A DNA stretch of 64,000 bases. Origin: Balanoglossus misakiensis. Taxonomy: Eukaryota > Animalia > Hemichordata. The notes under the pieces were generated by a model, which did no database searches, was not told where the DNA came from, and worked only from the letters and a program-made list of their open reading frames with translations. The number at the start of each line of letters is the position of its first letter. The stretch's first letter is position 1. Location of the stretch: the NCBI GenBank assembly GCA_040954595.2, contig CM082580.2, forward strand, positions 3,214,783 to 3,278,782, given 5' to 3'. The translations under genes were made by a program, and so were the position numbers. Shown in pieces: positions 25,701 through 56,745 of this stretch.

Positions 25701-28700
25701 CCAAATGAATAAGCATCACAGAGATTGAATCTACTACTGATTTCACTCCAAATACTATAAATCCACAATGTGCCACATGCAGAATTGTTTTTAGAACATC
25801 AATGCTAGTCTGATTAATCAAAATTTAAATTTAAGATTGTCATTTTGATTCTGGAAGTCGATGCATCATGGACACATTCTTTAGTATGCCCATTGTCAAA
25901 TGTGAAAATGAGTGTGAGTTATAGCATTTGGGCTATCCCAAACAGAAAGGGGTCTTATGGGAGTGTGATACTTATGACAATAAAACCCCTTTTTGCTTGG
26001 GATGACCCATTTGTGATGAGTCATGGTGGTCAACTGACAATACTGACTGTGCACTTCTATTAAAATGTCTGTGTACAGATGCATGTAAGATTAAAAGTCA
26101 ATCTATTGGACCTTGTGAAATGTAAGTGAAACATTAAAGGAGAAGTCAATTATAGGTTGATCAGGCAGCCTTATTTGAATTCCACCAGTCTTGGACAAGC
26201 TATTAATAAAAAATCATTGTTATCAGTAACTATTAAAGGAAAAGGCTAGGATTGCCAGTTTGGGCTGCTCTGTTAATATTGAGTTCAAATGTATACAATG
26301 ATTTCAGAAAAATTACTTCTGGGGTGTACTCTAGTAAAACTTGTTGGAGATCATAGATTATGAAACAAACAATATGCTCAGCTTTTGAGAGAATTATTCA
26401 TTTATTTTGCACATTTTGATATCATTTGTATACTAGTTATTCTTTGATGTTTTATGAGTCCATGATAAATGTGGCCATAAGGAAATGTGTTCAACCTGAA
26501 AGATCTCCACAAAGAAATCCCTAAATAATGTTTAAAATATCCCCAACGGTGTCCTTTCAGAATTGCTGTAAATCTGCAGTAAAACGAAATTTATCTGTGC
26601 ATATGTATTTATGTCTTTCAATGTAGACATGTGGGAGTCTAAAGTTTTCTGTGCGAAGTGAACACCAAGGAACAAGCATGTACTTCTAGGTTTTGTTAAT
26701 CAGTTGCAAATGGGAATAGCATGCAGAGACTGAGAACTGCAATCATGTACTGACAAAGGTTGAGACATGACAGACTTTGCAGCATGAGTTTTAGAAATCT
26801 ATTAATAGATGTGAGCTTATGAGTTTGTATGCGAGTAATGAAATTAAACAACGTTCCCTGTACTATTGATCCTGTCTAGAGTGAAATACCTTGATATGCA
26901 TGGTGCACCATTACTTTACAGTGACCCAGCTGAAATGAGATTGTCTGTTGAATTATAAAAAGCCCAGGCTCCTCTTATTATCTTGAGACCAGGATTTAGT
27001 TGTTAAATTTGCTAAATGCTCGGAATTCAAGATTACTGTTAATTCTTGTAATTGAATTTTGCAACAGTGCAGTATTCACTGTTTATGTGTTCTCATACAT
27101 GTGTTTGAATTTAGCAGCATTGTGATTCAAGTCTGTGTACTTGTGTAGATGGTTATACAAGCAGCAGTGTGATTGGTTGTATAATTTCAATTCTGAGAAA
27201 TTCAAACTATCAACCAATAAGCCGAGATCAAATATAATGTCTAGGCATTGAACCCCCCTAAAAAAGACTAACAAAAACAACAACGACAACAAAAACTCCA
27301 CATTTCAATACGATAATTCATTGCATTTGTTTGCTTTTTTTAAACTATTTTTTCAGAATCAAGAAGAAAAACCAGTAACAGGTACACAACCACAGGATAT
27401 GGACAGCGAAGCACTCATCAGTATTGTCAACAAAGCTGTATTGGCGATTACAACAAGGTTACAGAGTAAGTGTTGCCATAGTTCTTTATTCTCTCGAATC
27501 TCTGTAGAGCATCCCAGCTCTACTCCCAAAAGTGTATGTATATTTAGTTTGATAAGTTGAGGTTGATGGACCATACCTGGGCCACAGATGCAGTTGAGTG
27601 AATTATTATTTCAACATAAAACTCAGAGAGCTTTATAAATATTTGGCTTCTTCGTGCTCTCTGTGTTGATGTCAATTCAATCAACCACTCTTCAGGTTGT
27701 ATTATATATACACATAACACTGAAGTTCAACATTTCCTGTTTGACTACATTATCCTTTCTCTTCAGTCAATGCTCACATGATATTTTAGTGTGTAAGTGA
27801 CAGGTACTGTAAAACCTGTTATTTTCGCGAGCAATAAATTTACGCGAGAGCCAAAAAAAACACGAATATAAAGACTCGCGTAAATATAGTTGTGAAAGAA
27901 CAATGTGCACGATGCAGTACGAGAACGCGAAAATTAATACTCGCGAAACAGTGGCCTCTCTCGATATCGCGAAAATTTCAACTCGCGAAAAATAACATGT
28001 TTTACAGTATTCATCTGTTACACAGGGCACACAACAGCCCTGGATTGTACAACACTTCAATGTTGCCATCAAAATTCAATTTTATTTTATTTTTAGACAG
28101 TCAGTTGTCTGTTTTCTATCTATTATCCAAAAAATAATGGACCTGATTTTTTTTTCAATACTCCTTCAGTTTAACTTTTCTCAATTCAATCAATGTTTTC
28201 CTTCCAAGCTGTTTCTGAATTTATTGGAAAAAAACATTCAGTTTGAGAATATAGGTGTAATTTAAGTCAATTGAGTCAACCCATGGGAATATAGAAATTC
28301 ATTTTAGAGCTAAAATGTCACAAGTACTTGATATTAGCCAAGTTCTTCCTACATGTGTATGTATTTGTGCAATGTGTGTATTTGTCAGTCGGAGTCTCAA
28401 TATATTACAGTTGGCATGGAAAGAATGGGTTTTCTGAACTGAATTTTAATAACAGATCATGACATCTGCTTGATATTGACAAACAAATCGGCGATGGTAG
28501 ATCGTACAAGATTAATTGCAGTTGTCATCGGATTGAGGGCCGGCGCCTGGTTAGTCATATGTTCAAAGCACACGCATATTTTAACTTGATAGCCTGGAGG
28601 GAAAAGCAAAGATTTGGAGCTTGACAAACTTTGGGTAATAGAATAAACCCTGTATCTTGACATCAGACATGGACATGCACTGGTGATCTGTCTGCAGATG

Positions 28701-32239: not shown

Positions 32240-32284
32240 TGTCGCCGGGAGTTTTTCCACTTTTACCCGGGCAGTACTTTTCTA
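32240..32284 (+). repeat. First 45 bp of the Gypsy 5' LTR, separated from the rest by the inserted DNA transposon
   Basis: tgtcgccgggagtttttccacttttacccgggcagtacttttcta is identical to 46491-46535. Confidence 0.95.
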
Positions 32285-32805
32285 GACAGGGGCGACAAAC
32301 GTTATGCGCATGTGCCACAGGAAGTAAACAGTTACATAGACTTATGCTGGAGACGTAACTTTTTTTCAAAAGGGATGAAAAATACCCAAAAGGGATGGAC
32401 AAAATGACACATAAAGCTCGTGTGAACCATGATCTAAAACATACCTCATGTCCACATCAATCTAACCCTGGCCTAATAAGATATCGCGACTTGAATTTGG
32501 TGGCGCGTAATTTGAGCATGCACAACGTCATGTCAGTGTTGTGTCAGTTTGAAATAAACATTTCAAAGTTATGCAGATACTGTGATTTCGACTTAGGCTA
32601 ATAAAACTTCACCTACGTCATGTTGATAGCTGTTTAACAATCGTGTGATTTTCACGAAAAGTATGATGTGTACTACCGCCTTAGTTGAGAAATAAACAAT
32701 AATCCGTTCTCATGAGCAACAGCAGACGATGTAAACATTTGGCGCGAACGTTTCCAAAAGTGGACCAGTCGTTACCATGGTAGTCTAGTTGTAAACACTG
32801 CCAAG

Positions 32806-35800
32806 ATGTGCGACAACGACTGTGTCTTAGCTGGTAAAACCAGGTCACAAAACAAATGTAGTGGGAAGTTATATGCTATAACGGATGCGATAAGAAGATG
32901 TTGCAAAGGGTTAGTGAATGACGGCGATGTTTTTAGTTTTATTTGTAAATATCATTTTCGTCGTGTGACAAGAGACGACAGTCGCCGTTGCTCTTGTCCG
33001 GCACCATGGTCACACAGTCAGACGATCAGCGACCGCCCGATCCCGTCAAGGCTGTACAAGGTTTTTGATGAAGTAGGCGAGTCCGACAGAAGTTACATGC
33101 CTGGAACACGATGGTGTCATAGGTGCAAGTTACGAGCCGACTCAGAGTTTTTCCCCGGCTTCCAAGCTTACGTTCCTCCCAGCCAAAGTAAATCCGTTGA
33201 CCTCAGAGACAGATCCCCCTTGGTAAGTTTCAAGCATCTATATCTTCTGATTACATGTTTTCAATGTAGAAACGCACACTGGGATCGTGGGAGGTTCACT
33301 TCGGGTTCAATGACACAATATGTACGTACGAAAGTCGTATTATGAAACAAAACAAACGTAAGAAAGGGAAGTCCCTGACACTTCAATAATTGAGGGCGCA
33401 AACGCTGGGGGGGGGGTTCTTGAGAGAATGAAAATGATAATGTCTTGTTGTTTTTTCATTATATTTATCAGGTTCTACACAAGGAATATCTGTGTTTTGT
33501 GAAAAAGTAATTGATACATTGATGTGATTGTCCTATTTCTTCAACTCAACACTTGTACATGTATTTTCTATCATACAGTACCCAATCCAATTTGACCAGA
33601 AAGAGACACAGTATTGTGGTACAGTTCTTTCAAGTAGTGAGGGTCACGTATTGTTGTCAAGTAGTCAATGGAGAAGCATTATTTCGAAACTAGAAGGTTA
33701 GTATTTGATTTTAACACAGTTACAGAGAGTTAATAAGATTTTGTGCTATTTATCTAACGAATAAGGCCAGTTTTGATATCATTACCACCAGATGCAAGAC
33801 ATACAAAGAGGTAAATCAAATCTGCACCCTTTCAATATAACATTGTTTGGTCTGAGACTGTGCAGTTACTAAAATATGACTTCATTAGGTGTAAGACTTT
33901 TCACATGCAATGTAAGGCAACTAAATAAAATGTGAACAGTGTCTAGCAGCAAGTAGGTTATTTGGTAATTCTGATAATAATTGTGGGTTATAATTTTCCT
34001 CAAAATTCCCAGCATCAACTTTTCCCACTCAACTGAGGACCCTACAGGAAATGGTGTACAGGGCACAACAGAATGGTGTTTCTTTTGATCTGAAGAAGTT
34101 GGAGTTCTTTGTAAAGAAACATGTACCGGATCTGTATAGTTTGATCTATACAGCACTAGTTGACCCAGCAACATCGACACAAAGAAAAAAACAACAAGAG
34201 ATGAGAGTACTGGCCACCTTAAATTTACTCACATTTTACAGGTGAATAATTTTGTTTCTTTTGGTAGCTTATTTACATTGTTGTGTTCACTGAAACACAC
34301 CCAATGGTCAGTTGTTTAAAACTACTTGAGTGTACCAAAATCTCAACCTATTTCTTTTCAATCATAAAATTAGATCACAGAAGACAAGCCAGTTCCAAGA
34401 GGCCATGGGATTTTATTTAACCATGCAAGGGTTGTCACAGGAAGCCCTGGATATGTGTCGGGTGTTGGGTCTCTCACAGCACTCAAGAACCTTGGGGAGG
34501 AAGAAACAAGTAATTTCCAAAGAACACAGGAGAAATGTGCAGACATTCATTAAGAAGAAGTTACAAGTAGGTTTTTTATATTAAAAGGAAATTTTGCACT
34601 TTTTCAGAGATTTAATTTGCACTTTTTCAGTGATTTAATTTAGTGAAATATACATGTATTTATAAATGAATTTCATTTTTGAGTTTACCCAAAAGCCAGA
34701 AAGAAAAGTTCAACACCCATTTAAGTGAAAAACAATGTTTTTTATTCCTTGAAGTTTAATGTAAAAATCCATCTCTTTATAATAATTTATGTAGTAAGGT
34801 TAGTTGTAAATAGAAAACATACCTGTGTGTGAGTCTATCTAAAACACATTGGTTATGGAGACCAGGCTACATGATTGCTATCCTAGCTTTTACAAGATGA
34901 TGCTCTTTTTGTACAATGTCATTCATGTTCCAATTTATTGTATAGTCAATCTATGACAGTCATAGGGGTGTTATGCATGATGTCCTATAATTACAAAGTC
35001 GTACACCTTTTACCTTTGACTCTTTTTATTTTGATTCCAAGGAAAGAGGAAAGACATTCATCCTGGCATTAATCGACGACTTCCATAACATACATGGGTT
35101 TAAATCGATGGCTTCTGGCCATAAGGACCTCAAAACCAGTAAGGCAGTACACATGGCGACTACAATGTTGGATATTCTTCCAATTGAGCCACTCAATCTG
35201 CCAGATGATGGATCTATGCACAGGTAAGGGTAAAACATATTAATGATTACCTTATGACAGTCTTTGCAAAAATAATATACTGTATACATGTTTTACAGTT
35301 TTCTGAACAATACAAAAAGTATAATAAAACAACTGTACTATTTGCGTCATACGTATACTATATATACATGTGGACATGACAAAAATGTTCTTTTTACTTT
35401 GCATCCAGGACCATATTCATATACGACAAAAATGGCAAACAAATTCCAGTACGAGGAGGGATAGCACCCCATGTAATGAGGAGAGAATTTAAATACTTTA
35501 TGAAAGATTATTCCATGAGCTTTTTGGAATCTTTACCATCTACCTTTCATAAGCTTAACACTCAACATGCTATCTCATCATTGAAGAATATGAGGTAAGG
35601 TCCCACCGTTGTCCGATGCCACCAAACATTTGTGTGTTCGTTCGGTCAGTCAATCAATCAGTCAGTTACAGGAAATACAACAGTACTGTAATAAAATTAA
35701 AGTCTTTTATGATGTTACATTGTTTATCATGAATGTTTCCCCACTAAATAAAGAATGTAAAGTTATACTTACCAAATGTACTACATATTTTATCACCTTT

Positions 35801-38470
35801 GTATTTCTGATGTAAATCACACCCAGTGAATCTGAAAAAGAAATTAGAGAATGTAACTGTCTGTTGCAGTGAATGAATATAATTGTTGATGTAATTTCTT
35901 TGCTCTAGCATTTACAACCTTTGCTCAATTCTCTTTTGTTTTTAATTTTAAGGCCATATACTGACATTGATGCAGAAGAATTGCACACCCTTGACACAAC
36001 CATTCTGATTGATGAGATTGAACAGCAACTAAAGAATAAAGATGACCTGTACAACCTGTGGACCATGCTTCTCAATTTGCCACAACTGAAGACATACACT
36101 TCACAGCATGCTATTTTGGCACCAGGTGATTGGCCAGTGTGGTACTTTGGGAAAAAAATCATCGCCTCTTACAATGAAAATGACACAGTTGTCCCAAGAG
36201 AAGTTCTTTCTTTCATACCTACTGTTGGTCAATTTCATATTGCTTTAAATGCATCCCGTGATATTGTTATCTGTTCAAAGTTTTTTTTCCAGTTACTGTG
36301 CAATGGAGTCTTTGATAAGCGTTTTATATTAGCTGCCTTGCCTAAACCCTACAAGGTCTCACTCTGTATTTTTCTAGCATTCAGTGGTTGGGTTCGCATC
36401 CGTCGTTATGTAATTGGAAAACTGACTGTCTGTAAATCTGTTGAAGTGCAATTCTTGCTTTTTCTTCTTGATGAATTAATCCCGCTTGTTTATTTACATT
36501 ACCCTGTTTTTGTTCAAGGTAATGACAGAAAGATGTTACTGAATGTCATGAAACGCCTGGAAATCTACTTCATCATAGCCAACAGACATCACTACAACAA
36601 ATCTTTGCTGAGTTTGCTTTCTGATGACCTATACCACACATCACACTTACCCGGTTACACAAATCTGACACAACACCACCAACATATCATCACTGAGAAG
36701 AAAGTGGAGCTCTTTCACTCATCACTTCGACACCACATACAACCACATGATGATGGCAACACAATACAAAGACAAGCACACATGCTACACTATACAAAGC
36801 ACAACATTCTAATTCAAGAATTCTTACAACTGCACAACCATGGCAAAGACGACTATGACCTGACACTGTTAGCTGGCAGAAGTGCTGAGACACTACTTGA
36901 CATTGTCAATCAGGTTATGAAATCTGCAGCTGAACACCGACCCACACCAATTAACAATGGAACATATCACCTCCCAACATTCAATGCAGACATCACATCA
37001 AAATGCCTACCGCTGGGTTTCAGGTGGTCTCACCAACACCGACCAAATGAAGACCTCCTGTGTGACAGTCCAACCTGTTCAACCTCTTCTTCTTCCAATC
37101 TTTGCAAACGTCTCACCTGTGGCCACACATATCACATTACCTGCCTCAGTCAAACTGGCTGTTCTATTTGTTCCCCTTTCCTAACAGCTGAAGTTGTTCG
37201 CCTGTCTAACAGCTGGAATGAGGGCATTGTGAAGGAAATGCCACAACGGCCTCCACAAGAGTCCACAGAGACAGAGCACAGTGATGGCTTTACGTCCACT
37301 TCACACACACATGGGAAAGAGTACTACCTAACAACACAATTTGAAGATGACATCAAATCTCGTGCAGCTTTAATACCACAAGTTAGAACTGGTCAATACC
37401 AAAACCACCAACACAGGGAGATGAGTACACACACTACATGCACCTCCAATGCTGGTTTCTCCAATGTTTCTTCTTCAACACAACTTCCTCAGCTATCTGT
37501 TCTTTCCCCCACTGAATCACAACAAGCACAGACACCCAACTCAAACACCAATAATGTTCAACAAACACAAACACCATCACTGCCAGCACAAACATCTTCT
37601 CCCTCATCAAATGATGATACACATTTACAACAATCACAGACATCCAACCTATCGACCAGCGGCGGAGAAACACAACAATCACAGACATCAGCACCTCCAG
37701 AACCCACAGCCACATGCAGTCACTCCACTTATACTCACAAACAGACACAAATACAAGAAAACACAAACAAACAACTTCATAAATATTCTCACTTACGACA
37801 TTTGGTTTGGTTGACACCAAAACCACAAATGCACGGCACCATTAATTACTGGCTATGTCACTACATCATTTCACAAGGAACAATACACTCCAATAATGTA
37901 CGTTCAGGCAGCAATGCTTGCACCTTGATTTGTCTACTGTTTGCGCAATGGTTTTACCAAAGATGTCCTACAAATATGCTAACTACATCGACAGTGTTAC
38001 CTCAAGAATGGTTGGCTGGATTCATTATGTCGTGCGTTCGTGGAAATGATGTACATGATGTATACCGATTAAATGCAATTCACAACTCATTGAACCTTTC
38101 ACCATCAGAGGCAATTAAAGTGCTAGGAAACAAATTAAATTTACAATTTCAGTCAAATGAAATTGGACCGGTTTATACTTGTCACAGGTCAGAACCGAGG
38201 CGAGGGTTATTAGAGTTTTATTTTGGTTATTGTTTAACCAAAAGACAAAGTGCATTAATATATGTTAGAAATGAAATGTCGGTGTTATTTATAGTGAACC
38301 AGGGCAACATTCTGCTTGTAGATTCGCATAGTCACAGAAATAGTCAGAGTGGTGCTTTGTTTGCCCAAGTTAAATATTCCAATGCAGTTGATTTGTTGAG
38401 ATGGTACGACAACTTTATTGGCATTGATGCAGAGTATCATATCGGTACCGTAACACTAATAGGATTTTAA
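32806..38470 (+). CDS. Spliced ~1280-aa putative transposase fused to a RING-H2 finger and a herpes-tegument-like (C76/VTD) cysteine protease
   Basis: Seven GT-AG exons that splice in frame with no stop: 32806-33222, 33579-33696, 34013-34241, 34374-34566, 35042-35223, 35409-35594, 35953-38470 (3843 nt). Motifs: N-terminal CxxH...CxxP..H...PG...CxxC; IDDFHNIH; PGDWPVW; GQFHIALN; EKKVELFHS; RING CDSPTC...CGHTYHITC...CSIC; C-terminal SQG...GSNACTLIC...LLVDSHSH. Confidence 0.85.
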
Positions 38471-39104
38471 TTTTGCAACTGATAACAGATATAGAAATAT
38501 GTAAATACCTGTAACTTATAACTTATGATCATATTTATTACCAAATCTTGACAAAGTCAATAATAACAGTTTCTATCTTGTAAGTACTGAATTAGATACT
38601 TCAGAGCAAATGTATAGTTGAGAAGATATCTGCAATTAAATACGAGGGGGAAAATCAATTATATCTAAGCTTACCTTCATCAATTCAAGTTGAGAGTTGA
38701 CCATCCATAGTTGTCATAGTGACCTTGTCTCTGTTGTTTCTGTAAATAAATAATGGGCAGTGTACATTAAGGAATACATAGCAAATGTTTTGAATTGCTT
38801 TGTTTATGTAAATATGTAATTTTGGATATTGATGTTTTCAGAGAAGTGGTCGATTTAATCTACATGTATGTACATAATATAGATGGGAAATGATCATATA
38901 TTTTTATAATAAATATTTTCGTTATTTATACATTGGATTTTCTCTTTGATAACATCTCTCATACCAATACAATCACAATTAAACATAGCACAACAACCAC
39001 CAGACTCACCTCGTTTATGTTTTCCGTAGTACCGGTAGACGGAATCGATATTCTAATTTATTGGAACATGGTGGAAGCATCTATAGGTGGTGCCATATTG
39101 GTAT

Positions 39105-39166
39105 AGGTCGCACCGTAGTTGACAGAGCTCAGAAAATTCTAAGTGCTGTCAACTACGGTGCGACCT
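39105..39166. repeat. Perfect 21-bp inverted repeat (hairpin) in the right subterminal region of the DNA transposon
   Basis: aggtcgcaccgtagttgacag (39105-39125), a 20-nt spacer, then ctgtcaactacggtgcgacct (39146-39166). Confidence 0.9.
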
Positions 39167-39574
39167 GTGATATTGGCGCAACTAACAGAACGCCAAGACT
39201 CTATCGGCCATGAATTTACCAAGTTTCATCTCAAGGGCTACGGCCGATCCGCGAAATGCGATCCGCAGCTATGTTTTGAAACCAAAGATAAACATGCAAA
39301 ACACTGTGGGTAAACACTTTCCCGCGGCTACACCGTTTCTACTACAGAGTTTACCGAGTGACAGTTTGTCCAATCATATTATCAAAAGACGTAAGAAATA
39401 ACAATAATAATATATCTGCATTGGCGTTACCAGATTGCAGCCGAAACAACTTATAGAAGGTAAAACTTGGCCAGACTCCTGGCTAGACGCGTATCAGCTG
39501 GTTGAAAACACTCGCCCACATTGTACTTCCGGTAGCGCATGCGCAGAACGTTTGTCGCCCCTGTGACTTTTCTA

Positions 39575-40331
39575 TTGTTGAGATCATTGCCATGCATAGC
39601 GCCCTCACGAGCCTGCAGGGGGAGAACGTCCTACATCATGGCGTCCCTCACCATGCAGGCAAGTGTATTTGTAGCGTCCAGATTTCTATCGAATATTTTC
39701 TATGTAAAGGTTGGCATCCATGCCCCATGTTATACCACGGACAAAAGTAACATTTTGAGAACACTCGTTGAAAGTTTCAGTGTTTGATGTTGGATATTTT
39801 TCATGGTTCTTCCAGTTTTATTCCACTCTGTACTTACCATTTGTAGGCTTGTGTGCAGTGCCTATTGTCGTGCATGTTATTCCCATGTGTCAGTTCCTGA
39901 CCATTTCGTACTTACCTGCCAATATATCGTTGTTCAGTGGTTTCCATACAATTTAAACAAACAGATATGACTACCTTTGGTATATCAAGCTATTTTATTT
40001 AGTGTTTTCAGAGTTTTGTAAGCTTCACACAGGCCATGTAGTGCGTCACATGACTAGACACCCTAGCTTACTGTGGATTGTTGAAACCCCATTTATTGAA
40101 CCCATAACTCAGTGTACGTTCTTTTCCCTCCTACATCATGGCGTCCCTCACCATGCAGGCGATGCGGAAGAAAATAAAACAAGCAATGTGAAGCCATAAC
40201 TGGTGTCGGCTGAGTTTATTATGTGTGAGCGGTACTGTGACACTGATCAACAGAAAATAACGCAACGCAATGACAATAAGACAGAACTATTGAAGTACAG
40301 AACTATTGAAGTACAGAAAATCAGTGCCACA
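39575..40331 (+). repeat. Remainder of the Gypsy 5' LTR
   Basis: Matches 46536-47292 with no difference found by eye. Ends ...agtgccaCA. AATAAA at ~40173. Confidence 0.95.
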
Positions 40332-40333
40332 TC

Positions 40334-40352
40334 TGGTGCCGAGACCAGGATT
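40334..40352 (+). promoter_or_regulatory. Primer-binding site (tRNA-His-like)
   Basis: TGGTGCCGAGACCAGGATT lies 2 nt after the LTR. It is complementary to a tRNA 3' end, closest from memory to invertebrate tRNA-His (TGGTGCCGTGACCAGGA); tRNA-Phe is not excluded. Confidence 0.75.
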
Positions 40353-40648
40353 GATCCACAGTTACGACCGTATCCAGTTTATGTGTGTATGCTGATTCAG
40401 CCAGCGGAAGTCCAGTGTATGCAGAGTTGCTGTATTGTGTGCGAGTTGTTGACTGCTCCACAAGGAACTTGCCTGTCGACATTTTTAAAAAAAAAAAAAA
40501 AAAAAAAAAGAAACACACACACATTTTGCAGACAAACATTTGAACAGTGAACTGTGAAAGAAAAGAACAGTGTTTACTGAACTCTGCTTAGAGCAGTACA
40601 TTGAGTGCCAGTGGTTTGTAGCAGTATTCCGTACAAATATACCAACCC

Positions 40649-41983
40649 ATGAGTAGCAGTTTATTACCAAATATGCAGAACACAACTGTTGACGATTTGA
40701 TGACCTTTGACCTTGTTGAAGGGGATGACATCCAAAATCCACGGGAAGCAGTTCCACCCACTCCGCAACAACCCCCCATCACCATGACAACCCCACACAG
40801 ACCGGTGAACCAGGGTAACTATGATCCCAATACCCCGCACAGCCAACCAGTTATGCAGCAACCAAGCATGTTCCTTGCCTCCAGTAATTTGTTTCAACCA
40901 AACTTTCAGTCCACCCCATATTTCTGTCCACAACCAGCAGTACCACCTGTACAGCCATCATTCCAACCGGCTTTGAACCCACCACCCGTTTCTCAGTATA
41001 GAATGAACTCATCACATCAAGTGCGTGGTGTACCGATTTTCAGCGGGAATCCAGATGGGAAAGTGCTTGTGGAGGACTGGATCAGAGACATCCAATACTT
41101 ATTCGAAGCCGGTACAATGCCAGAATACCTGCAGTTTGCCACCATCATACGACACTTAAGTGGCGAAGCAAGGAAATTGGTCCTCAACCTCCCACCATCA
41201 CAACAAACCCTGAGTCGTGCTTTCGATGAATTGCGCGCCGAATATGGAGAGGGATGTCTGTCTATGGACCCGATGGGCAGCTTCTATGAAAGACGACAAC
41301 GTTCAGATGAGTCAGCAAGCTCCTATGCAATAGCCCTAGAAGATATGTTGCGACAGGTAGAGGAGAGAATGAACCGTGGTCGACCCTACATGGACAGAGA
41401 CTATAAACTTACCCAGCAGTTTATGAAGGGTTTGCACGATCAAAGTGTTTTCAATCGACTGGCTCCTATGAAACCGAGACAAATGACCTTTGCTGAACTT
41501 AGGGCTGAGCTTCGTCATCTAGCCAGAGAAGGTAGGCAAACAGCAAACAAATCGAAGAAAGGCCAGACTCAACCGCATTTTGCGAGAGATAACCATGATC
41601 AGACGGGCAATCAGTCGGTGTCATTCATACCAGATCAGACACCAGGAGTCGACCAGTCCATGGCACAAGTCACCCAGTTACTACAACAAATTGCACTGAA
41701 CCAGGAACAGCAGGCTGCACGACTTGCCAAACTGGAAGCGAAGGCCACCAACGCACCGAAACAACCATCTGATCAGAGCAGCAGTACACCGATGTGTACG
41801 GCTGGTAAACCAGATCCAGCAGCAGCTAACAGAAAGCCAGCTCCACGGTTTGATGAGAATACTGTGTGTCATCGTTGTGGTGGTAAAGGACATATAGCTA
41901 AGGGATGTTGTTCCAAACCCATCCAGAAGTCCAGGGGATCACCCAGTGGTGCTGGACATCATACAGCTACACCTTTAAACTAG
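40649..41983 (+). CDS. gag: Gypsy Gag (PNMA-like capsid, CCHC zinc knuckle)
   Basis: 444-aa ORF with FSGNPDGKVLVEDWIRDI, HLSGEARKLV, FYERRQRSDESASSYAIALE and the knuckle CHRCGGKGHIAKGC. Confidence 0.93.
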   Translation: MSSSLLPNMQNTTVDDLMTFDLVEGDDIQNPREAVPPTPQQPPITMTTPHRPVNQGNYDPNTPHSQPVMQQPSMFLASSNLFQPNFQSTPYFCPQPAVPPVQPSFQPALNPPPVSQYRMNSSHQVRGVPIFSGNPDGKVLVEDWIRDIQYLFEAGTMPEYLQFATIIRHLSGEARKLVLNLPPSQQTLSRAFDELRAEYGEGCLSMDPMGSFYERRQRSDESASSYAIALEDMLRQVEERMNRGRPYMDRDYKLTQQFMKGLHDQSVFNRLAPMKPRQMTFAELRAELRHLAREGRQTANKSKKGQTQPHFARDNHDQTGNQSVSFIPDQTPGVDQSMAQVTQLLQQIALNQEQQAARLAKLEAKATNAPKQPSDQSSSTPMCTAGKPDPAAANRKPAPRFDENTVCHRCGGKGHIAKGCCSKPIQKSRGSPSGAGHHTATPLN

Positions 41984-44900
41984 TTCAACCTGTGGAAGAG
42001 GGACATTCCGCAGGTGTTGACACAGTTAGTCCCCCTCGTCAACAGAAAGCAGATTCATTACAAGTTCGATCTGGAGTGGAGGTGGTAGACCAATTGGTTG
42101 GACCATTGAACGAGACATTGGTGGAAGTGAATGGCATTAAGTGTAGTACCCTGGTAGACACAGGTTCCCAAGTAACCACAGTGACCGAAGACTTCCTGCA
42201 GTCTCATCCTCAGCTATCCAGTAGAACATTGGAATCTGCAGACATTACTATTGAAGGGGCGGGAGGCCAGAGTGTTCCTCATTACGGTGTGACACGGTTA
42301 GACTTGACATTTCTTGGGCGGACATATAAGCAAGTACCGGTATTTGTTGTCCCACATACAGCGTATCGCAAGAAAGTGCCATTGTTGATTGGAACGAATG
42401 TGATACGTACTAGCCGCAACGATTTGAGAGCCATACATGGACACTGCTACCATAGCCAAGTTAAACGGACATCAGAAGTATGGTATAGTGCCTATAGGCA
42501 AGTGGGGAAAACAGAGCTTGGTGGGAAGTCTGGATTGATAGGTCAAGCAAAATACAGGGGCCGTCGGCCCATGACTATACCACCAGGAGAAGAGGCCCAC
42601 ATTCCCTGTCGTGTGCCAAGGGGTCCCGCCAGGATGATGTACACTGCACTCATAGAAGGCCCGCAAACTCGATGTGTTCCAGATGGGTTGGCTATTGGCA
42701 GAGTACTAGCCGATATTGACGGAGGACAGACAAGCGTAAGAGTTTGTAATTACTCGTCTAAGCCCCTGGTCATCTGGCCAAAGACCTGCGTTGCAGAGTT
42801 GCATGCTGTAGAGAGCGAGGATGACCTTCCAGCCCTCAGGGAACCCAGGAAATCAGACAAACATAAGCAAAACAGTACTAGACAGGGCAGGTCCAGGAAC
42901 CGCAGAACAATGCAGTCCGGGCGTGATCATGCACCTCCACGACTGAGTCCACCCCAATGTCAGAGTACTACGCAGTCTGCATGGGATGGTATCCCTCCTG
43001 TCGATTCGAGTGGTGTAGCAGCAGATAACCTTGAACAGCTTCAAGCTTTAAAGGATCTCCTGCGGAAGAATGCCGATGTGTTCTCAAAACATTCTATGGA
43101 CTACGGTAGAACGACTACCATCCAGCACGAAATACCGCTTGTGGACAACCAGCCATTTCGGTTACCACACCGTAGAATACCCCCAACGCAGTACCAAGAG
43201 ATCAAAGAGCATATTGCAGACATGGAGTCAGCGGGAGTGATTAGACCCAGCAAGAGCCCTTATGCGTCTCCCATCGTTATTGTGCGCAAAAAGGATGGCT
43301 CTCCCAGGATCTGTATCGATTACCGTGAACTCAATAAACGTTCCATCAAAGATGCATTTCCCATGCCCCGTATTGATGATGCGCTGGAGGCCCTTGGGCA
43401 GGCAAAGTACTTCTCTACGCTGGACCTTACCTCTGGATATTGGCAGATGGAGATTGCTGAAAAGGATAAGTACAAGACAGCATTCACAACCCCCATGGGA
43501 CTCTTTGAGGCGAACCGAATGCCTTTCGGTCTTACAAATGCACCAGCGTCGTTCTCCAGACTTATGACAGCTTGCTTGGGCGACCAGAACTTTTCCACAG
43601 TCATCATCTACCTGGATGATATCATCATATTTTCCCGTACCTTTGATGAACACCTTACCAGACTCCAAATGGTGTTTGACCGACTACGTCAACACGGGTT
43701 GAAACTGAAACCCCAGAAGTGCAGCCTTCTGCAAAGGGAAGTAAGTTACCTGGGGCATCGAGTGTCGGCAGACGGTATCAGCACGGACCCAGAGAAATTG
43801 AAAGCTGTGAAAGAATGGCCCAGACCTAGAAACCGTAAGGACCTACTAAAGTACCTTGGCTTCACTGGGTACTACCGTCGGTTTATCAAGGGTTACAGCA
43901 CCATAGCGGCGCCTCTGTACCGTTTGACTTCGGGAGACCCCAGAAAGAAAGTGAAAGGAGGAAAGGCACCCAAGCCTGCCCCACCATTTGTCTGGTCCAG
44001 CGAGTGTGAGGACGCTTTTTGTTGTTTGAAGGATAAACTTTTGTCTGCTCCCATCCTTGGATACCCCGACTTCTCGAAGCCATTTGTCCTTCATACAGAT
44101 GCATCCGGAGAAGGTCTAGGTGCTGTACTAGTCCAGAATCAGGAGGGCAGAGACAGAGTTATATCATATTGCAGCAGAGGATTGTCACCTTCAGAAACCA
44201 GATACCCTGCACATAAGTTAGAGTTTTTGTGCCTCAAATGGGCTATCACCGACAAACTGAGGGACTACCTTTACGGCAATTACTTTACTGTACTAACAGA
44301 CAACAACCCCCTAATCTACGTCATGTCCACCGCAAAATTGGATGCTACAGGCCAGCGGTGGGTTTCTCAGCTGTCCATGTTTAACTTTGATATCAAGTAC
44401 AGGCCGGGCAAGAACAACGCCAATGCGGATGGTCTCTCTAGGATGCCACGTGAAGAGGTTGCTCAACACTTCAAAGCCGTATGTAGTATGGTGAACAGCA
44501 AGGCCCTTGTGGATGGTGAGTCGAGACCAGAAGCGGCGGCCTCAGATGCCTTGCCCGGTATGACACCGTCAATGTTGAGACTGTGTCAAGAGGAAGACTC
44601 GTCAATTCAGAGAGCAGTTTTCCTGCGTAGCTCATCGAGAAAACCCAGCCAGAGGCAACTAAGGAGTGAATCCAAAGAGACAAGGCTGTTGCTCTACCAG
44701 TGGGACCGACTACAGGTCAAGGATGGCATACTGTACAGACAAGTTCGTCCACCTCAAGGAGCTGAAGTTTTCCAGATGGTTCTTCCATGTAAGTACCGAA
44801 GGGATGTCTTCCAGAAGCTACATAGTGAGATGGGACACCTTGGCCTGGACAAAACATTAGACCTCATACGTGCACGATTTTACTGGCCACAGATGTTTGT

Positions 44901-46368
44901 CCAGGTGAAGACGTGGTGTGAGCAGTGCACGCGCTGTTGCCTGAGGAAAACGGCGTCCAACATCCGGGCACCCCTTGTCAACATTAGAACTTCCGAGCCA
45001 ATGGAACTAGTATGCATTGACTTCTTGACACTTGAGCCATCCAAAGGAGGCATAGAGAACATACTTGTGGTAACGGATCATTTCTCTCGTTACGCCCAGG
45101 CCTTCCCCACTCCAAACCAGAAGGCTTCAACTGTAGCTAGAATTCTTTGGAAGAATCTGATATGTCATTACGGCTTTCCACGTCGCCTTCATGCAGACCA
45201 GGGACGTAATTTCGAAAGCTCATTGATACGCGAGTTGTGTAGCATTACCAATACCGTGAAGAGTCATACCACACCATATCACCCCCAGGGAAATGGGATG
45301 ACAGAGAGATTTAACCAAACGCTTCTCAATATGCTTGGAACCCTGGATCCGTCCCAGAAAACCGACTGGAAAGAGCACGTTGAAACCTTGACCCATGCTT
45401 ACAACTGTGCCAGGCATGAGTCCACGGGATACTCACCTTTCTTTCTCATGTTTGGGAGATGTCCACGCCTGCCAGTAGACCTTGTATTCAACACCTCATC
45501 GGACAAGGAAGAGCCAGTCGAGTATTCAGACTATGTTGACGCACTCAGAGAGCGGTTGAAGATCGCCTACAGAGAAGCAAGTGCCAATGCAGATGAAGCA
45601 AGACAAAGGCAGAAGAAGCAGTATGATAGTAAGGCAAAGGCAGAGAGCCTGTCCCCCGGCGATAGAGTCCTGGTACAGCTGAAAGAGACAGGCAAACACA
45701 AAATAGGGGACCGGTGGGAAACAACACCCTATATCGTAGTGAAGAAACAACCAGACATTCCCGTCTATGTGGTTAAGTCTGAGATAGAGGACAGAGAGAA
45801 AACAGTGCATCGCAACATGCTCAAGTTATGCTCATTCCTACCAGTGGAGTCTGGAGGTCAGCCAACCAGGCCAGTGGTGGGTGGTGCCAGCGGTCCAGTC
45901 ACTTGTGCCACTGCTGGGGGGACCGACTGTGATTCAGAGGCCGAAGGAGACATGGTAGAATTGGTAGCCGAGCCAGAACTCACAGGGCTGACCCCTACGG
46001 AAGAACCCGCAGTTGCAGTCCAGCCTAAAGGGATCAGCAGCCCAGAACCATTGACAGCCCAGATGCCGACCACCGGTTATACACCAGATAACCATATATC
46101 AGTGACACCATCCACTTGTACTCCTGGTGCACCGGATGCTTCCACACAAGGGCAACACCAGTCATCCAAGGATAATCCCGCCACTATACATACACCGCCA
46201 ACCGATCACAGCAACACCCTGGAACAGCCAGAGACAACACCTCGCCGATATCCACAAAGACAGCGGAGACCACCCGACAGATTAGGATCTTATATTTTAT
46301 CCATAGTTGCCAGAGCTACAGGACATACTCACCCAGAACAATGTGTGGGACCTATGATCGAGGTTTAA
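41905..46368 (+). CDS. pol: Gypsy Pol polyprotein (aspartic protease, reverse transcriptase, RNase H, integrase), expressed by -1 frameshift near 41980
   Basis: LVDTGSQVT (PR); SPYASPIVIVRKKDG, LDLTSGYWQ, YLDDII (RT); LHTDASGEGLGAVL, TDNNPL (RH); HSEMGH...CEQC, CIDF, HADQGRNFES, GMTERFNQTL (IN). No stops. Confidence 0.96.
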   Translation: MLFQTHPEVQGITQWCWTSYSYTFKLVQPVEEGHSAGVDTVSPPRQQKADSLQVRSGVEVVDQLVGPLNETLVEVNGIKCSTLVDTGSQVTTVTEDFLQSHPQLSSRTLESADITIEGAGGQSVPHYGVTRLDLTFLGRTYKQVPVFVVPHTAYRKKVPLLIGTNVIRTSRNDLRAIHGHCYHSQVKRTSEVWYSAYRQVGKTELGGKSGLIGQAKYRGRRPMTIPPGEEAHIPCRVPRGPARMMYTALIEGPQTRCVPDGLAIGRVLADIDGGQTSVRVCNYSSKPLVIWPKTCVAELHAVESEDDLPALREPRKSDKHKQNSTRQGRSRNRRTMQSGRDHAPPRLSPPQCQSTTQSAWDGIPPVDSSGVAADNLEQLQALKDLLRKNADVFSKHSMDYGRTTTIQHEIPLVDNQPFRLPHRRIPPTQYQEIKEHIADMESAGVIRPSKSPYASPIVIVRKKDGSPRICIDYRELNKRSIKDAFPMPRIDDALEALGQAKYFSTLDLTSGYWQMEIAEKDKYKTAFTTPMGLFEANRMPFGLTNAPASFSRLMTACLGDQNFSTVIIYLDDIIIFSRTFDEHLTRLQMVFDRLRQHGLKLKPQKCSLLQREVSYLGHRVSADGISTDPEKLKAVKEWPRPRNRKDLLKYLGFTGYYRRFIKGYSTIAAPLYRLTSGDPRKKVKGGKAPKPAPPFVWSSECEDAFCCLKDKLLSAPILGYPDFSKPFVLHTDASGEGLGAVLVQNQEGRDRVISYCSRGLSPSETRYPAHKLEFLCLKWAITDKLRDYLYGNYFTVLTDNNPLIYVMSTAKLDATGQRWVSQLSMFNFDIKYRPGKNNANADGLSRMPREEVAQHFKAVCSMVNSKALVDGESRPEAAASDALPGMTPSMLRLCQEEDSSIQRAVFLRSSSRKPSQRQLRSESKETRLLLYQWDRLQVKDGILYRQVRPPQGAEVFQMVLPCKYRRDVFQKLHSEMGHLGLDKTLDLIRARFYWPQMFVQVKTWCEQCTRCCLRKTASNIRAPLVNIRTSEPMELVCIDFLTLEPSKGGIENILVVTDHFSRYAQAFPTPNQKASTVARILWKNLICHYGFPRRLHADQGRNFESSLIRELCSITNTVKSHTTPYHPQGNGMTERFNQTLLNMLGTLDPSQKTDWKEHVETLTHAYNCARHESTGYSPFFLMFGRCPRLPVDLVFNTSSDKEEPVEYSDYVDALRERLKIAYREASANADEARQRQKKQYDSKAKAESLSPGDRVLVQLKETGKHKIGDRWETTPYIVVKKQPDIPVYVVKSEIEDREKTVHRNMLKLCSFLPVESGGQPTRPVVGGASGPVTCATAGGTDCDSEAEGDMVELVAEPELTGLTPTEEPAVAVQPKGISSPEPLTAQMPTTGYTPDNHISVTPSTCTPGAPDASTQGQHQSSKDNPATIHTPPTDHSNTLEQPETTPRRYPQRQRRPPDRLGSYILSIVARATGHTHPEQCVGPMIEV
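41974..42037 (+). promoter_or_regulatory. Programmed -1 ribosomal frameshift signal
   Basis: Slippery heptamer T TTA AAC (41974-41980) directly before the gag TAG; pol is in the -1 frame. After a 7-nt spacer comes the stem acctgtggaa/ttccgcaggt (41988-42015). Confidence 0.85.
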
Positions 46369-46480
46369 ATCAGTTTCATGTAGATCACAACAAAAACAAA
46401 TTCTTTGAAATGTTCGCGTTATTGTTAAATTTTTGATGAAAAAAAAAAAAAAAAAACGTTGAGGACACCGTTTCCCAAAC

Positions 46481-46490
46481 AGGGGGAGAG
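46481..46490 (+). promoter_or_regulatory. Polypurine tract
   Basis: AGGGGGAGAG lies immediately before the TG of the 3' LTR. Confidence 0.9.
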
Positions 46491-47292
46491 TGTCGCCGGG
46501 AGTTTTTCCACTTTTACCCGGGCAGTACTTTTCTATTGTTGAGATCATTGCCATGCATAGCGCCCTCACGAGCCTGCAGGGGGAGAACGTCCTACATCAT
46601 GGCGTCCCTCACCATGCAGGCAAGTGTATTTGTAGCGTCCAGATTTCTATCGAATATTTTCTATGTAAAGGTTGGCATCCATGCCCCATGTTATACCACG
46701 GACAAAAGTAACATTTTGAGAACACTCGTTGAAAGTTTCAGTGTTTGATGTTGGATATTTTTCATGGTTCTTCCAGTTTTATTCCACTCTGTACTTACCA
46801 TTTGTAGGCTTGTGTGCAGTGCCTATTGTCGTGCATGTTATTCCCATGTGTCAGTTCCTGACCATTTCGTACTTACCTGCCAATATATCGTTGTTCAGTG
46901 GTTTCCATACAATTTAAACAAACAGATATGACTACCTTTGGTATATCAAGCTATTTTATTTAGTGTTTTCAGAGTTTTGTAAGCTTCACACAGGCCATGT
47001 AGTGCGTCACATGACTAGACACCCTAGCTTACTGTGGATTGTTGAAACCCCATTTATTGAACCCATAACTCAGTGTACGTTCTTTTCCCTCCTACATCAT
47101 GGCGTCCCTCACCATGCAGGCGATGCGGAAGAAAATAAAACAAGCAATGTGAAGCCATAACTGGTGTCGGCTGAGTTTATTATGTGTGAGCGGTACTGTG
47201 ACACTGATCAACAGAAAATAACGCAACGCAATGACAATAAGACAGAACTATTGAAGTACAGAACTATTGAAGTACAGAAAATCAGTGCCACA
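46491..47292 (+). repeat. Gypsy 3' LTR (802 bp)
   Basis: TG...CA, followed by the ATTA TSD. Confidence 0.96.
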
Positions 47293-47471
47293 ATTAATTG
47301 CATTTATCTTTGTTGCATACAAAAACATAGACACATGACAACAGGCTATATTGTACTCCATTTCTAAATTGCTCAAGATCCCTTTTTACCAGTAGCAGTA
47401 AGTGACATACCAGTACAACAGGTAACTTCCATGGCAAGATACAACTAAAAGTGAGAACTTCACAAATAATA

Positions 47472-47679
47472 CTGTAAAACACTTTATTTTCGCGAGTTGA
47501 AATTTTCCCGATATCGAGAGAGGCCACTGTTTCGCGAGTATTAATTTTCGCGTTCTCTTATTTCATTCACTGTATCGTTATCTTCAAAAAAAAATTATGT
47601 GATTTTTTATTTTCATGCTATTTTGGCTCTCGCGTCTTTGGCGAAAATTTATTGCTCACGAAAATAAAGTGTTTTACAG
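47472..47679. mobile_element. MITE family A copy
   Basis: ta-ctgtaaaacactttattttcgcgag...aaaataaagtgttttacag-ta. Confidence 0.88.
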
Positions 47680-48726
47680 TATAGTACAAAGATTAAATTT
47701 TCAAATATTGTGGAGATAGATTATAATTTTGTGGAGTGTCTATGGGCATGAAAATATTAAATATGTGCTTGGAGAATGATGAAAAAACATATGATAAACT
47801 TCAAATGATCAACTGGAAAGATCACTGCTGTCTCCAACTGGTTATAGTTAAAAGTTCATTGTTGGGTAGAGCAGTCAAAATGTATTAAGGGGTCTGAATT
47901 CAAGTCTCCTCTGGGCGGCTCAGTTGTTTTTACTCACAAAATTTCCACTTGGCTTGTTGAATTTGGTACTCCTCAAATTTACAGCAAAACAGAGTTCTTT
48001 CTACATGGTGGATTTGGTAAATCACTGGTTTTTGTGACAGTCTATTCATATTATCTGGATATATGCAAAGTGTGGATTTAGAGAACATGCAAACAGCTTA
48101 AATTGGACAACCATGCTCCCCTTTAAAATGAAAACTGACCAGTAATTATAATTATAATGTTTATATAGAGTTGGACATAAAGTTGTGCATAGCTTAAAAT
48201 GTGAAATGCACTTTTTGTTCACTCTGCCAAGATTCGAAATGCGCTAGTCAAATGGCTGTCTTCATGGAGTTGAAAACGTGATCTGATATTGAATATTTTT
48301 TGCGTGCTCCATTTAATTTCAACACACTACAGACACTGTATCACTGGCAAGTTTGACGAAAATAAATGACTACTACAATTCTCTCCATGCTGTCTAGAAA
48401 ATGCACGCACATGTACCATACTGTCTCCCTGAACAGTCCATGAAATAATACCCAGCGGCATCTTTATATTCACAAGACAGCCTCACAAATTTGAAACTGC
48501 ACACAACACCACATCTGTCACAATCAATTTTTTGGTTTTCATGGTGATGTGTTCAAATCCTCTGAGTCACCCTTTCCTTTCAATGAGAATATAGTGTGTA
48601 GGACTCTATACATGTTTCAGTAATGGGACTAGATATACATGTTATGGTAATATTGGCGTTATATCTAGGAGTGGCAAACATAATCCAGTTGACCTATTGG
48701 AGGTCATCAATGAAACACTCAAGGTA

Positions 48727-48933
48727 CTGTAAAACACTTTATTTTTTACAAGTTGAAATTCGTGATATCGAGAGAGGCCACTGTTTTGCGAGTATTTATT
48801 TTCGCGTTCTCTTATATCATTCACTGTATCGTTATCTTCAAAAATAGTTTACACAACTTTTTATTTTCACGCTATTTTGGCTCTCGCGTATTTCGCGAAA
48901 ATTTATTGCTCGCGAAAATAAAATGTTTTACAG
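48727..48933. mobile_element. MITE family A copy
   Basis: Same TIRs and internal sequence as the other copies. Confidence 0.87.
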
Positions 48934-49695
48934 TTTATCTTCAGGGAATGTTAGTCATGCATACTACCGATGTACTTTCATCCCCTCCCCCTAAAAAAGA
49001 AAGATGAAAGTAATGTACATGTACAATATTATTGAGATTACCCACAATTCTCACTGATTTGTATTGTTGAAGGTCACAAGCACTTTACCATCTAAATTGT
49101 ATTTTAATTTAAGTACAAGTGCGTTTTCTAGCAAACATTTCTATATAGTCACAGAGGCCATAAAGTTCCAGATTTAATGCAGTAACTTTAAATTGCCACA
49201 TTTTGGGGAAACATGGACAAATAAATTCTCTGTATGTCTTTTGGAAAAAAAAAGAAACAATTATCCCTTGTCAATTTTGTTTCCTCCTTTCCTTTGCACT
49301 TTAGTGTGGCTCATCAAATTGAAAATGTTTCTAAAATTCCTGTAACGCATCTCCAAATAAGAGCCTATGGGAATTCTTTGAGCAATGCAGATGGTGCAAA
49401 TCAGAATGAATCATAGGATTGTTAGTTCTGTATGACAGGATGTAATTTTGTGTGGAGTTCGTGTTTAGCAATAGATCACTCAATACCCATACAATGGCAC
49501 TGAGACAATCACGGCCAGATATTTGGAAGAACATTGATTGCAAATGAAGTGTATAGTTGGAATAAGTGAAACTTGTACTAACATGACAGTCTGAAATTAT
49601 AACAAAACATGGACCCGTAATGGTTTGTAAACTGATCATTATCTCTGAGCTACTACATTCAGACTTCTCCATCTGCTTACCAGTGTTCCAATTGT

Positions 49696-52340: not shown

Positions 52341-52601
52341 TTAAATGTTTTCTGGAAAACTTTGACTTGTAAGTACATGTTCAATGGGACAGTATATAAT
52401 GAAATTGAGTATACACATTTCCTTTATTTTCTCCACTTCAGAAATTCTACTTGATTTCTGTTGTTGTTTTTCTTTGGATGACTTTATATGTGATATCCAA
52501 ACACACTCACATACATATTCCATAACCTTGATGTGACCATAGCAGATTCAATCCGGTGTATAACCCTGGCAACTGCTTGCTTTTAACCAAGTAAATAAAT
52601 A

Positions 52602-52811
52602 CTGTAAAACAGGTTATTTTCGCGAGCAATAAATTTTCGCGAAATACGCGAGAGCCAAAACAACACGAAAATAAAAAGTCGCGTAAAAATGTTTTTCAGA
52701 GATAACTTTGCAGTTAGTAAAATACAAGAACGCGAAAATTAACCCTCGCGTAACAGTTGCCTGTTTTGATATCGCGAAAATGTCCTGTCGCGAAAATTAC
52801 CCGTTTTACAG
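52602..52811. mobile_element. MITE family A, diverged copy (reverse orientation)
   Basis: ta-ctgtaaaacaggttattttcgcgag...cgcgaaaattacccgttttacag-ta. Confidence 0.82.
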
Positions 52812-53429
52812 TATAGGTTTCAAGAATATCTGTATTTCTCCCAGTAAGAGTCCCAGCTTAAAGGCAACAGCCCAGCTCCCATTTTATGATGAATTTTCTA
52901 GGTTTATATCCTGTCACGAGCCATGGATTGTAGATTTTTATGGCTGAACTATACCACTGACATATGGCACATGCAGGAAGCACTGATGTTTGTCTGCATT
53001 TTTTTAGTATTTTCTTGTCATCTTATACATTTTGTACGTAATTGATCACTGTTAGTTGTGAATATAAAAAGCCTGTGTATACTTCAACAGCAAATCTGCC
53101 ATACGACAATTTACAAATGTACTGGCAAGAGCAAGGCAATGTTTAAGCCCATGGTCTCTCAGTGGGAGAAATACAGTATCATTACCCAAAAAAATTGAAA
53201 CTGGGAGTGCCAAATTTTATGGTTCCAGACTGCAATTAAAATAATTTATGTACCACACATAAACCAACAAGATACAAAATAAATTTTATATTCACAGAGT
53301 TAAAATTAATCAATAGGCAACATGTTTAATGTACTTTTAGGGCACCACCTGAGAACTATACCATTGTATAAGTCAGTCAATGAAAAGCAATATCAGCAAA
53401 ATTGTACTTGGGATGTGGTACTGGATTAA

Positions 53430-56400: not shown

Positions 56401-56537
56401 CTGTAGAGAAAAAAGATTATAATAATGTTTATAAAAATATTACAGTTGAATGAGAATGCATAAGCCTGTGAAGATAATTGTCAATCATGCATACTACACA
56501 AGTAGTGTGTGTGGCCTCATTTACTCCACAGCACATA

Positions 56538-56745
56538 CTGTAAAACATGTTATTTTCGCGAGTTGAAATTTTCGCGATATCGAGAGAGGCCACTGTTTCG
56601 CGAGTATTAATTTTCGTGTTCTCGTACTGCATTGTGCACATTGTTCTTTCACAACTATATCTACGCGAGTCTTTATTTTTGTGTTTTTTTGGCTCTCGCA
56701 TATTTCGCGTAAATTTATTGCTTGCGAAAATAACATGTTTTACAG
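56538..56745. mobile_element. MITE family A copy (subfamily A2)
   Basis: TA-flanked TIRs; internal segment like the 27807 copy. Confidence 0.88.

Follow-up and report, generated by a model that had tools for sequence, protein, structure and literature searches.

Can a DNA transposon carry its own writer and eraser of ubiquitin, and to which lineage would such an element belong? These questions are raised by a 64,000-nt stretch of the genome of the hemichordate Balanoglossus misakiensis (assembly GCA_040954595.2, contig CM082580.2, positions 3,214,783 to 3,278,782; hereafter the window, in whose coordinates all positions are given), where a first-pass annotation had described a young transposon encoding a transposase fused to a RING finger and a deubiquitinase. 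We find at 32285-39565 an intact, recently inserted terminal inverted repeat (TIR) transposon of 7,281 bp with a 9-bp target site duplication (TSD). With moderate confidence, we read its single gene as coding for a predicted DDE transposase that combines a likely structural RING-H2 finger with a likely ubiquitin-removing viral-tegument-like domain (VTD), the latter probably protecting the transposase from degradation.

An intact element with exactly known ends

The element is a real, intact TIR transposon that inserted recently and duplicated 9 bp of its target. Its 42-bp TIRs are identical at 37 of 42 positions and at 18 of 19 in their tips, where the sole mismatch is the first base (G versus C), and an 18-nt TIR pattern is matched twice in the window against 0.02 matches expected by chance. 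Among lengths of 2-13 bp, only a 9-bp duplication fits the flanks, each of which carries ACTTTTCTA. The element lies 45 bp inside the 5' long terminal repeat (LTR) of a Gypsy-type retrotransposon, and the same target site is seen empty in the 3' LTR (from 46491), the two LTRs being otherwise identical (801/801). The inverted repeats, the duplication and the empty site reported at first pass are thus all borne out. Because only one LTR is interrupted, the element presumably inserted after the retrotransposon had integrated. Two contigs of run X1 (one sample, one study, possibly the source) exit the element exactly at 39565 into other flanks, a sign of further insertion sites.

The GAC/CAC ends of this copy are unusual for its family, as the majority of relatives begin with A[AG]CA[GT]. 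A separate observation concerns the interior of the TIRs, where TGCGCATG occurs at 32305-32312 and 39538-39545 and again in the ends of the relatives L001, L003 and L007. It thus stands at TIR position 20-21 in three animal lineages that are divergent from one another, and in several soil-type elements its place is taken by ATTGG at TIR position 22-23. These motifs resemble NRF1 and CCAAT-box motifs, and we take them to be possible host-factor sites.

One gene for a predicted multidomain transposase

Seven exons, separated by six GT-AG introns of 132-475 bp, give a predicted product of 1,280 amino acids (aa) without an internal stop, and the element holds no other open reading frame longer than 135 aa. 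The product aligns end to end with protein P0001 of Ptychodera flava (64% identity over 1,317 columns), and the identity varies by part, with 53% in the N-terminal zinc region, 61% in the helical domain, 82% in the core, 80% in the RING, 35% in the linker and 64% in the VTD. Two P. flava isoform models switch sequence exactly at junctions 1 and 3, and the same species has two full-length copies on different contigs (1284/1310 identical). The earlier proposal of a seven-exon gene for an uninterrupted protein of ~1280 aa is supported by the stop-free, colinear product, the splicing being predicted, and all the motifs then quoted from the protein (IDDFHNIH, PGDWP, GQFH and EKKVELFHS) were found. 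The two Cys/His clusters of exon 1 are likely zinc-binding DNA-binding units, and similar motifs occur in soil relatives. The features are collected in Table 1.

Table 1. Features of the transposon, its predicted gene and the host retrotransposon (window positions).
Feature	Position	Strand	Remarks
Left TSD	32276..32284	+	ACTTTTCTA, 9 bp; present once in the empty 3' LTR site
Left TIR	32285..32326	+	42 bp; first letters GACAGGGG; TGCGCATG from position 21
Exon 1	32806..33222	+	residues 1-139; two Cys/His clusters; 53% identity to P0001
Exon 2	33579..33696	+	residues 140-178; P. flava isoform P0272 joins at same position
Exon 3	34013..34241	+	helical domain ahead of core
Exon 4	34374..34566	+	helical domain; P. 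flava isoform P0274 joins at same position
Exon 5	35042..35223	+	first RNase H strand; D331/D332 at 35075-35080, predicted first catalytic Asp
Exon 6	35409..35594	+	RNase H core
Exon 7, first part	35953..37027	+	D501 36128-36130; G-x-x-H537 36236-36238; helical insertion; E694 36707-36709
Exon 7, full extent	35953-38470	+	stop codon 38468-38470
RING-H2 (C3H2C3) finger	37061..37171	+	C812-C848; short second loop
S/T/Q-rich linker	37373..37777	+	residues 916-1050; poor conservation
VTD (viral-tegument-like, peptidase C76 fold) domain	37835..38470	+	C1098, D1232, H1234
Right TIR	39524..39565	-	minus-strand start CACAGGGG
Right TSD	39566..39574	+	ACTTTTCTA
Host Gypsy-type LTR retrotransposon	32240..47291	+	gag 40622-41983, pol 41902-46368, 3' LTR 46491-47291

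A predicted DDE core, likely related to Academ

The fold was modelled on the relative P0007 from a 107-row alignment (predicted local distance difference test score, pLDDT, 86.8) and carried by homology to the window protein, which is ~25% identical to it and matches it in BLAST at E 2e-53 in the core and 1e-15 at the C-terminus. The core of the model matches Hermes (Z 10.8, root-mean-square deviation (rmsd) 6.5 over 300), the P element (Z 9.4), Tn5 (Z 9.2) and, at Z ~8 with rmsd ~3 over ~125, retroviral integrases; a weak RAG1 match (E 0.13) came from Foldseek. Candidate catalytic residues are nearly invariant in an alignment of up to 157 rows (D331 and D332 in 139/139 and 138/139, D501 in 151/152, H537 in 155/155 and E694 in 155/156). 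When the triad is placed from the secondary structure of the model, D331/D332 fall in the first strand, D501 follows a strand and E694 opens the last core helix, and G-x-x-H537, with its Gly kept in 153/154, begins a helical insertion. The model and these conserved residues support the RNase H/DDE core that had been proposed for the central region, and the window protein keeps D331, D501 and E694 of this predicted RNase H-fold DDE domain with helical insertion.

Hermes (hAT), the P element and RAG1/Transib have in common with this protein the RNase H core, a sizeable helical insertion in it and a His that is conserved behind the second Asp, and RAG1 also has a RING. They differ from it in having C/D-x-x-H rather than G-x-x-H and no RING C-terminal to the core, and hAT, P and Transib have other ends and TSD lengths (~8 bp in hAT and P, 5 bp in Transib). 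In place of the motif by which hAT, P, MuDR and Kolobok as well as Dada are recognized (PMC9587614), the family has G-x-x-H, the His of which may be positionally equivalent.

The nearest named group is the one already suggested at first pass, Academ/DUF6589. For the core, the Atlas ranked DUF6589 clusters first (0.96; 206/256 features), and 24 of the 30 named matches belonged to the DUF6589 set. The Pfam family DUF6589 scored in one of 50 proteins, a relative at E 0.0016, below the cut-off, and the match falls in the stretch from GD to GxxH. The motif order offers a further parallel through locus L085 (6105-12010), which lies on a contig of a bacterial metagenome-assembled genome (MAG), likely eukaryotic contamination, and contains a DUF6589 transposase gene, split by introns, that lies tail to tail with one for a RecQ helicase, the layout of AcademH. 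Its motifs FDNID, GDQL, GDWH and PLDxDxEHSN run parallel to the family order D, GD, GxxH and E-x-x-x-E-x-x-H. The best hhalign alignment of the family to DUF6589 is colinear on the helical domain over 116 columns; against reversed or shuffled controls (<=19.1), the N-half set scored 21.2 and the C-half set 17.4.

The nuclease of AcademX is of the XPG type, and AcademX encodes one large transposase protein whose accessory domains follow the core, an arrangement that recurs in the present element. By definition, AcademH combines a helicase with 9-10-bp TSDs, and AcademX a nuclease with 3-4-bp TSDs (Kojima and Bao, PMC10045372). The element resembles AcademH in its TSD length, its D/GD/GxxH/E order, the preceding helical domain, its nearest Atlas clusters and its animal and fungal range; it is unlike AcademH in having one gene instead of two, a RING and a VTD after the core, a sub-cut-off DUF6589 score and no helicase. 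Neither the element nor the 82 related loci, many of them partial, matched the RecQ pieces of L085 at E<=0.1 (0/83; control positive). From AcademX it is set apart by its 9-bp TSD and by the nuclease, as the window protein had no Pfam match to an XPG-type nuclease and the domains of the P0007 model are the core, the RING region and the VTD. Both enzymes had been reported missing at first pass, and none was matched in the element. Because it fits the definition of neither AcademH nor AcademX, we file the element as Academ-related but in neither lineage; a link to Academ/DUF6589 is likely, and most probably the lineage forms a third branch of this group, one without either enzyme.

The core could also stand outside Academ, as a lineage of superfamily rank within the DDE transposases that have an insertion domain (hAT, P, MuDR, Kolobok, Dada and Transib/RAG), a view to which the non-significant profile alignment to DUF6589, the large tight cluster (667 at E<=1e-30) with its own ends and family-wide RING, and the best solved folds (Hermes, P and RAG1) lend some weight. 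We consider it unlikely in view of the Atlas matches of up to 0.96, the weak Pfam match between GD and GxxH, the parallel motif order and the colinear helical domain. The ranking of solved folds is blind to Academ, as no Academ structure was among those compared.

A predicted ubiquitin eraser

For residues 877-1074 of the P0007 model, the best match is 8ADD, a Helitron VTD (Z 18.8, rmsd 2.7 over 179), followed by herpesvirus M48 (2J7Q, Z 16.7), AvrPphB (Z 14.4) and a Waddlia VTD (Z 14.3). Foldseek placed 8ADC and 8ADB as the top VTD rows for the model, and the family profile reached 8ADB among PDB sequences at E 0.0017. VTDs are defined by a Cys and an invariable Asp-x-His (Erven et al., PMC9741609), and the window protein keeps this triad (C1098, D1232 and H1234). 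Among 175 proteins scanned, the family VTD profile finds 49, and 40 extend over both motifs, with triads of C/D/H in 22, C/E/H in 17 and C/E/R in one; Cys and His are thus kept in 39/40, a conservation that would fit a maintained enzyme. The cysteine-protease-like fold of C76/VTD type with an intact triad, as first annotated, is supported by the model and its 8ADD and 2J7Q matches, and both fold and active site lend good support to the prediction that the VTD is a deubiquitinase.

The domain shares the fold (on P0007) and the Cys plus Asp-x-His with the Helitron VTD (DrT1-VTD2, 8ADD) and with herpesvirus M48/UL36 (2J7Q), and with the former also its residence in a transposon. Unlike in Helitrons, the carrier here is a TIR/DDE element rather than a rolling-circle one, many relatives have E-x-H, and activity and chain preference are predicted. 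Separately, two uncharacterized proteins of Catovirus and Indivirus (A0A1V0SAW3 and A0A1V0SCX7) are the best viral fold matches to the P0007 model in BFVD (E ~3e-3 to 5e-3), where they rank among herpesvirus tegument proteins; they are possible giant-virus VTDs.

That the VTD might be a working cysteine protease acting on NEDD8, on another modifier or on the transposase itself, instead of on ubiquitin chains, strikes us as improbable. The fold does match the non-deubiquitinase protease AvrPphB, Glu replaces Asp in many relatives, a long flexible linker precedes the domain, and viral tegument deubiquitinases with deneddylase activity are known (PMC9741609). On the other hand, Asp-x-His is the hallmark of VTDs, unlike YopT-type proteases (PMC9741609), and the two best folds, 8ADD and 2J7Q, are those of proven deubiquitinases.

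Among animal members, the predicted deubiquitinase is a patchy add-on and optional, as TIR-bounded elements without a VTD indicate. A single origin of the VTD-bearing transposases is rejected on the core tree (p-AU 5e-48, four changes needed), in a test that used a quick tree of 14 rows against 30, with the group picked after an earlier tree and some VTD-less rows perhaps representing truncated gene calls. Cores that carry a VTD do not group in a single clade, so that either two or more gains of the domain or repeated losses have to be assumed.

The pairing of a transposase with an isopeptidase of the ubiquitin family has precedents. Ginger1 and Mutator-like transposases carry C-terminal OTU or Ulp1 domains (PMC2836005), and VTDs are described from Helitrons in a paper that also mentions, in a single sentence, fusions of cnidarian VTDs to transposon-associated domains (PMC9741609); the text of its supplement names no such cnidarian VTD-transposon element. 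The Ginger1 and Mutator-like proteins resemble the present one as single-protein DDE transposases with a ubiquitin/SUMO-family isopeptidase, introns and TIRs, and they differ in transposase class and in lacking the VTD/C76 protease and the extra RING.

A RING finger of doubtful ligase activity

The RING-H2 finger has a complete C3H2C3 ligand set (C812, C817, C831, H833, H836, C839, C845 and C848), as had been claimed, and its ligands are conserved in the family (C831 in 120/120, H833 in 119/119). RING-type E3 ligases usually contact the E2 through a Trp in the central helix, a Pro after ligand 7 and a linchpin residue. Among 140 distinct family RINGs, the Trp between ligands 6 and 7 occurs in none, the loop between these ligands has 6-7 residues in 110, the Pro is present in 75 and the linchpin position varies (K 36, F 23, Q 22, L 13, R 12); in the window RING, Ser occupies both the Pro and the linchpin position. 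Family profiles match RING-H2 E3s (Arkadia, RNF165 and RNF38) weakly, at E ~3e-4 to 1e-3, and IAP RINGs weakly too, and all Pfam RING scores stay below the cut-off, the best being Vps8/Vps41-type fingers. The finger is near-universal in fungal and animal members of the family, with or without a VTD. Because it persists in TIR-bounded relatives without a VTD (L007, L044, L048 and L051), it is no matched partner of the eraser.

From these residue patterns, E3 ligase activity of the RING appears doubtful, and a structural or DNA-binding role is more likely, by analogy with piggyBac, whose C-terminal cross-brace finger has such a role. One alternative takes up the first-pass notion of a ubiquitin writer: the RING would be an active E3 that, together with the VTD, alters the ubiquitination of the transposase, of histones or of silencing factors of the host. 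It draws on the intact and conserved ligands, the profile matches to RING-H2 E3s, the Pro in about half of the family and the E3-active RING of RAG1. Some active RINGs lack the Trp, and IAP-type RINGs are active E3s with a similarly short loop, for which reason room is left for ligase activity. The missing Trp, the unconserved linchpin, the two Ser residues of the window RING, the sub-cut-off Pfam scores and the independence of RING from VTD nevertheless make the combination of writer and eraser unlikely.

Distribution of the family

Two profile searches outline the family, the first with 246 proteins (120 best listed) and the second with 3,609 clusters at E<=0.001, of which 667 reached E<=1e-30 (150 best listed), weak matches possibly covering only the RING or the VTD. 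Among the matches listed are sea anemones, corals, octocorals and a jellyfish; further members come from amphioxus, the sponge Oscarella, P. flava, the Glomeromycota fungus Diversispora and Pompholyxophrys. The best 80 of 386 metagenome relatives were taken; some of these elements are 6.4 kb long and have core, RING and VTD in a single frame (L001-L004), and others, of 2.7-5 kb, have core and RING and no VTD (e.g. L007, L048, L051 and L055). Exact 9-10-bp duplications were found at three of the 21 loci with both ends (L044 with 9 bp, L001 with 9 or 10 and L003 with 10 in the family register). L002 combines the left flank of L003 with the right flank of L001 and so shows that chimeras occur among these metagenome contigs; chimeric assembly may also lie behind other missing duplications. 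The end pair of L080 is probably spurious.

Viral contigs gave 48 pattern matches and no relatives. Two short prokaryote MAG contigs with relatives are, in our reading, contamination from eukaryotes: one matches the loci of soil type, and the genome with the other also contains the intron-split DUF6589/RecQ locus. As a side observation, a clade of ~700-aa relatives (P0062, P0074 and the P0076-P0102 group) ends just before the RING; these may represent a subfamily that has no RING, a domesticated gene or gene calls truncated at an intron.

Judged on Pfam and the open-licence literature, the lineage is widespread in animals and fungi and apparently undescribed, in keeping with the first-pass annotation: no Pfam family scored above the cut-off over the core, homologues among the matches listed are named only 'uncharacterized' or 'hypothetical', and no description of the lineage was found in open-licence papers. 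It is possible, if somewhat unlikely, that Repbase or Dfam already catalogues it, for instance as 'Academ-2', in which case the novelty would be limited to the domain annotation. Members abound in sequenced animals and Glomeromycota, repeat annotations of bivalves and of a bolete use the label Academ-2, and the mention of cnidarian VTD fusions by Erven et al. (PMC9741609) points the same way. Against this stand the uncovered core, the uninformative homologue names, the silence of the open-licence literature and the account of Academ by Kojima and Bao 2023 (PMC10045372), which gives two lineages only, each with its own enzyme.

Other features of the element and the window

The retrotransposon into which the element inserted has open, overlapping gag and pol frames; it appears very young, with identical 801-bp LTRs, a 4-bp ATTA flank duplication and a 32-bp repeat that occurs twice per LTR. 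The 3' non-coding part of the element contains a perfect ~20-bp inverted repeat with a 22-nt spacer (39107-39168), and in intron 4 a short stretch (34823-34870) is common to many unrelated contigs, joined on opposite strands, and is probably the remnant of a high-copy hairpin repeat. A ~230-bp dispersed repeat resembling a miniature inverted-repeat transposable element occurs in both orientations in the window (459-690, 4153-4385, 5235-5464, 27792-28014, 47457-47688, 48711-48941, 52587-52818, 56523-56757 and 57111-57340).

Proposed mechanism and significance

Several results weigh against the reading that we favour. The modelled relative is distant from the window protein, with the only ~25% identity given above, and the single-sequence AlphaFold model of the window protein itself (exon 7) reached a pLDDT of 36.5. 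The window VTD alone matched no PDB sequence at E<=10, the window protein has no Herpes_teg_N match in Pfam, Glu stands in 17/40 relatives where VTDs are described with an invariable Asp, and the seed of the VTD profile consisted of 38 rows chosen by their Cys motif. As regards Academ, DUF6589 scored in just the one sub-cut-off protein of 50 and in none of the further family proteins scanned with Pfam, and hhalign of the family against a shallow, one-clade DUF6589 set gave E 0.15-0.52, which is not significant. A TSD is absent at 18 of the 21 loci with both ends.

Under the favoured reading, that of a one-gene transposase with a structural RING and an erasing VTD, the N-terminal Cys/His units and the helical domain would bind the TIRs, and the RNase H core (D331 or D332, D501 and E694) would excise the element and join it to target strands 9-10 bp apart, without an element-encoded helicase or nuclease. 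The RING likely aids the assembly or binding of the transpososome. The VTD would be an accessory, gained at least twice or lost repeatedly in animal lineages, that, by analogy with the Helitron and herpesvirus VTDs, may shorten K48-type chains attached to the transposase or to proteins at the site of cutting. A more far-reaching version appears quite improbable to us, in which the element belongs to an opisthokont-wide, superfamily-level lineage, still mobile in marine animals, that unites a transposase, a working RING E3 and a twice-recruited herpesvirus-type deubiquitinase, edits ubiquitin both ways and is a candidate carrier spreading VTDs among animals.

A large DNA transposon lineage (667 protein clusters at E<=1e-30) that lies outside Pfam now has a young, intact copy, the ends of which are exactly known. 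It has been suggested that the 9-10-bp versus 3-4-bp TSDs relate to the AcademH helicase and the AcademX nuclease (Kojima and Bao, PMC10045372); if our reading is true, an Academ-related lineage with 9-10-bp TSDs and neither enzyme would imply that the spacing is intrinsic to the transposase. VTD deubiquitinases have been proposed to spread via several transposon classes and to shield transposition proteins from degradation (Erven et al., PMC9741609). The present lineage would offer a DDE carrier that exists naturally with and without the VTD, so that one point mutation would suffice to test this function, with less effort than in a Helitron.

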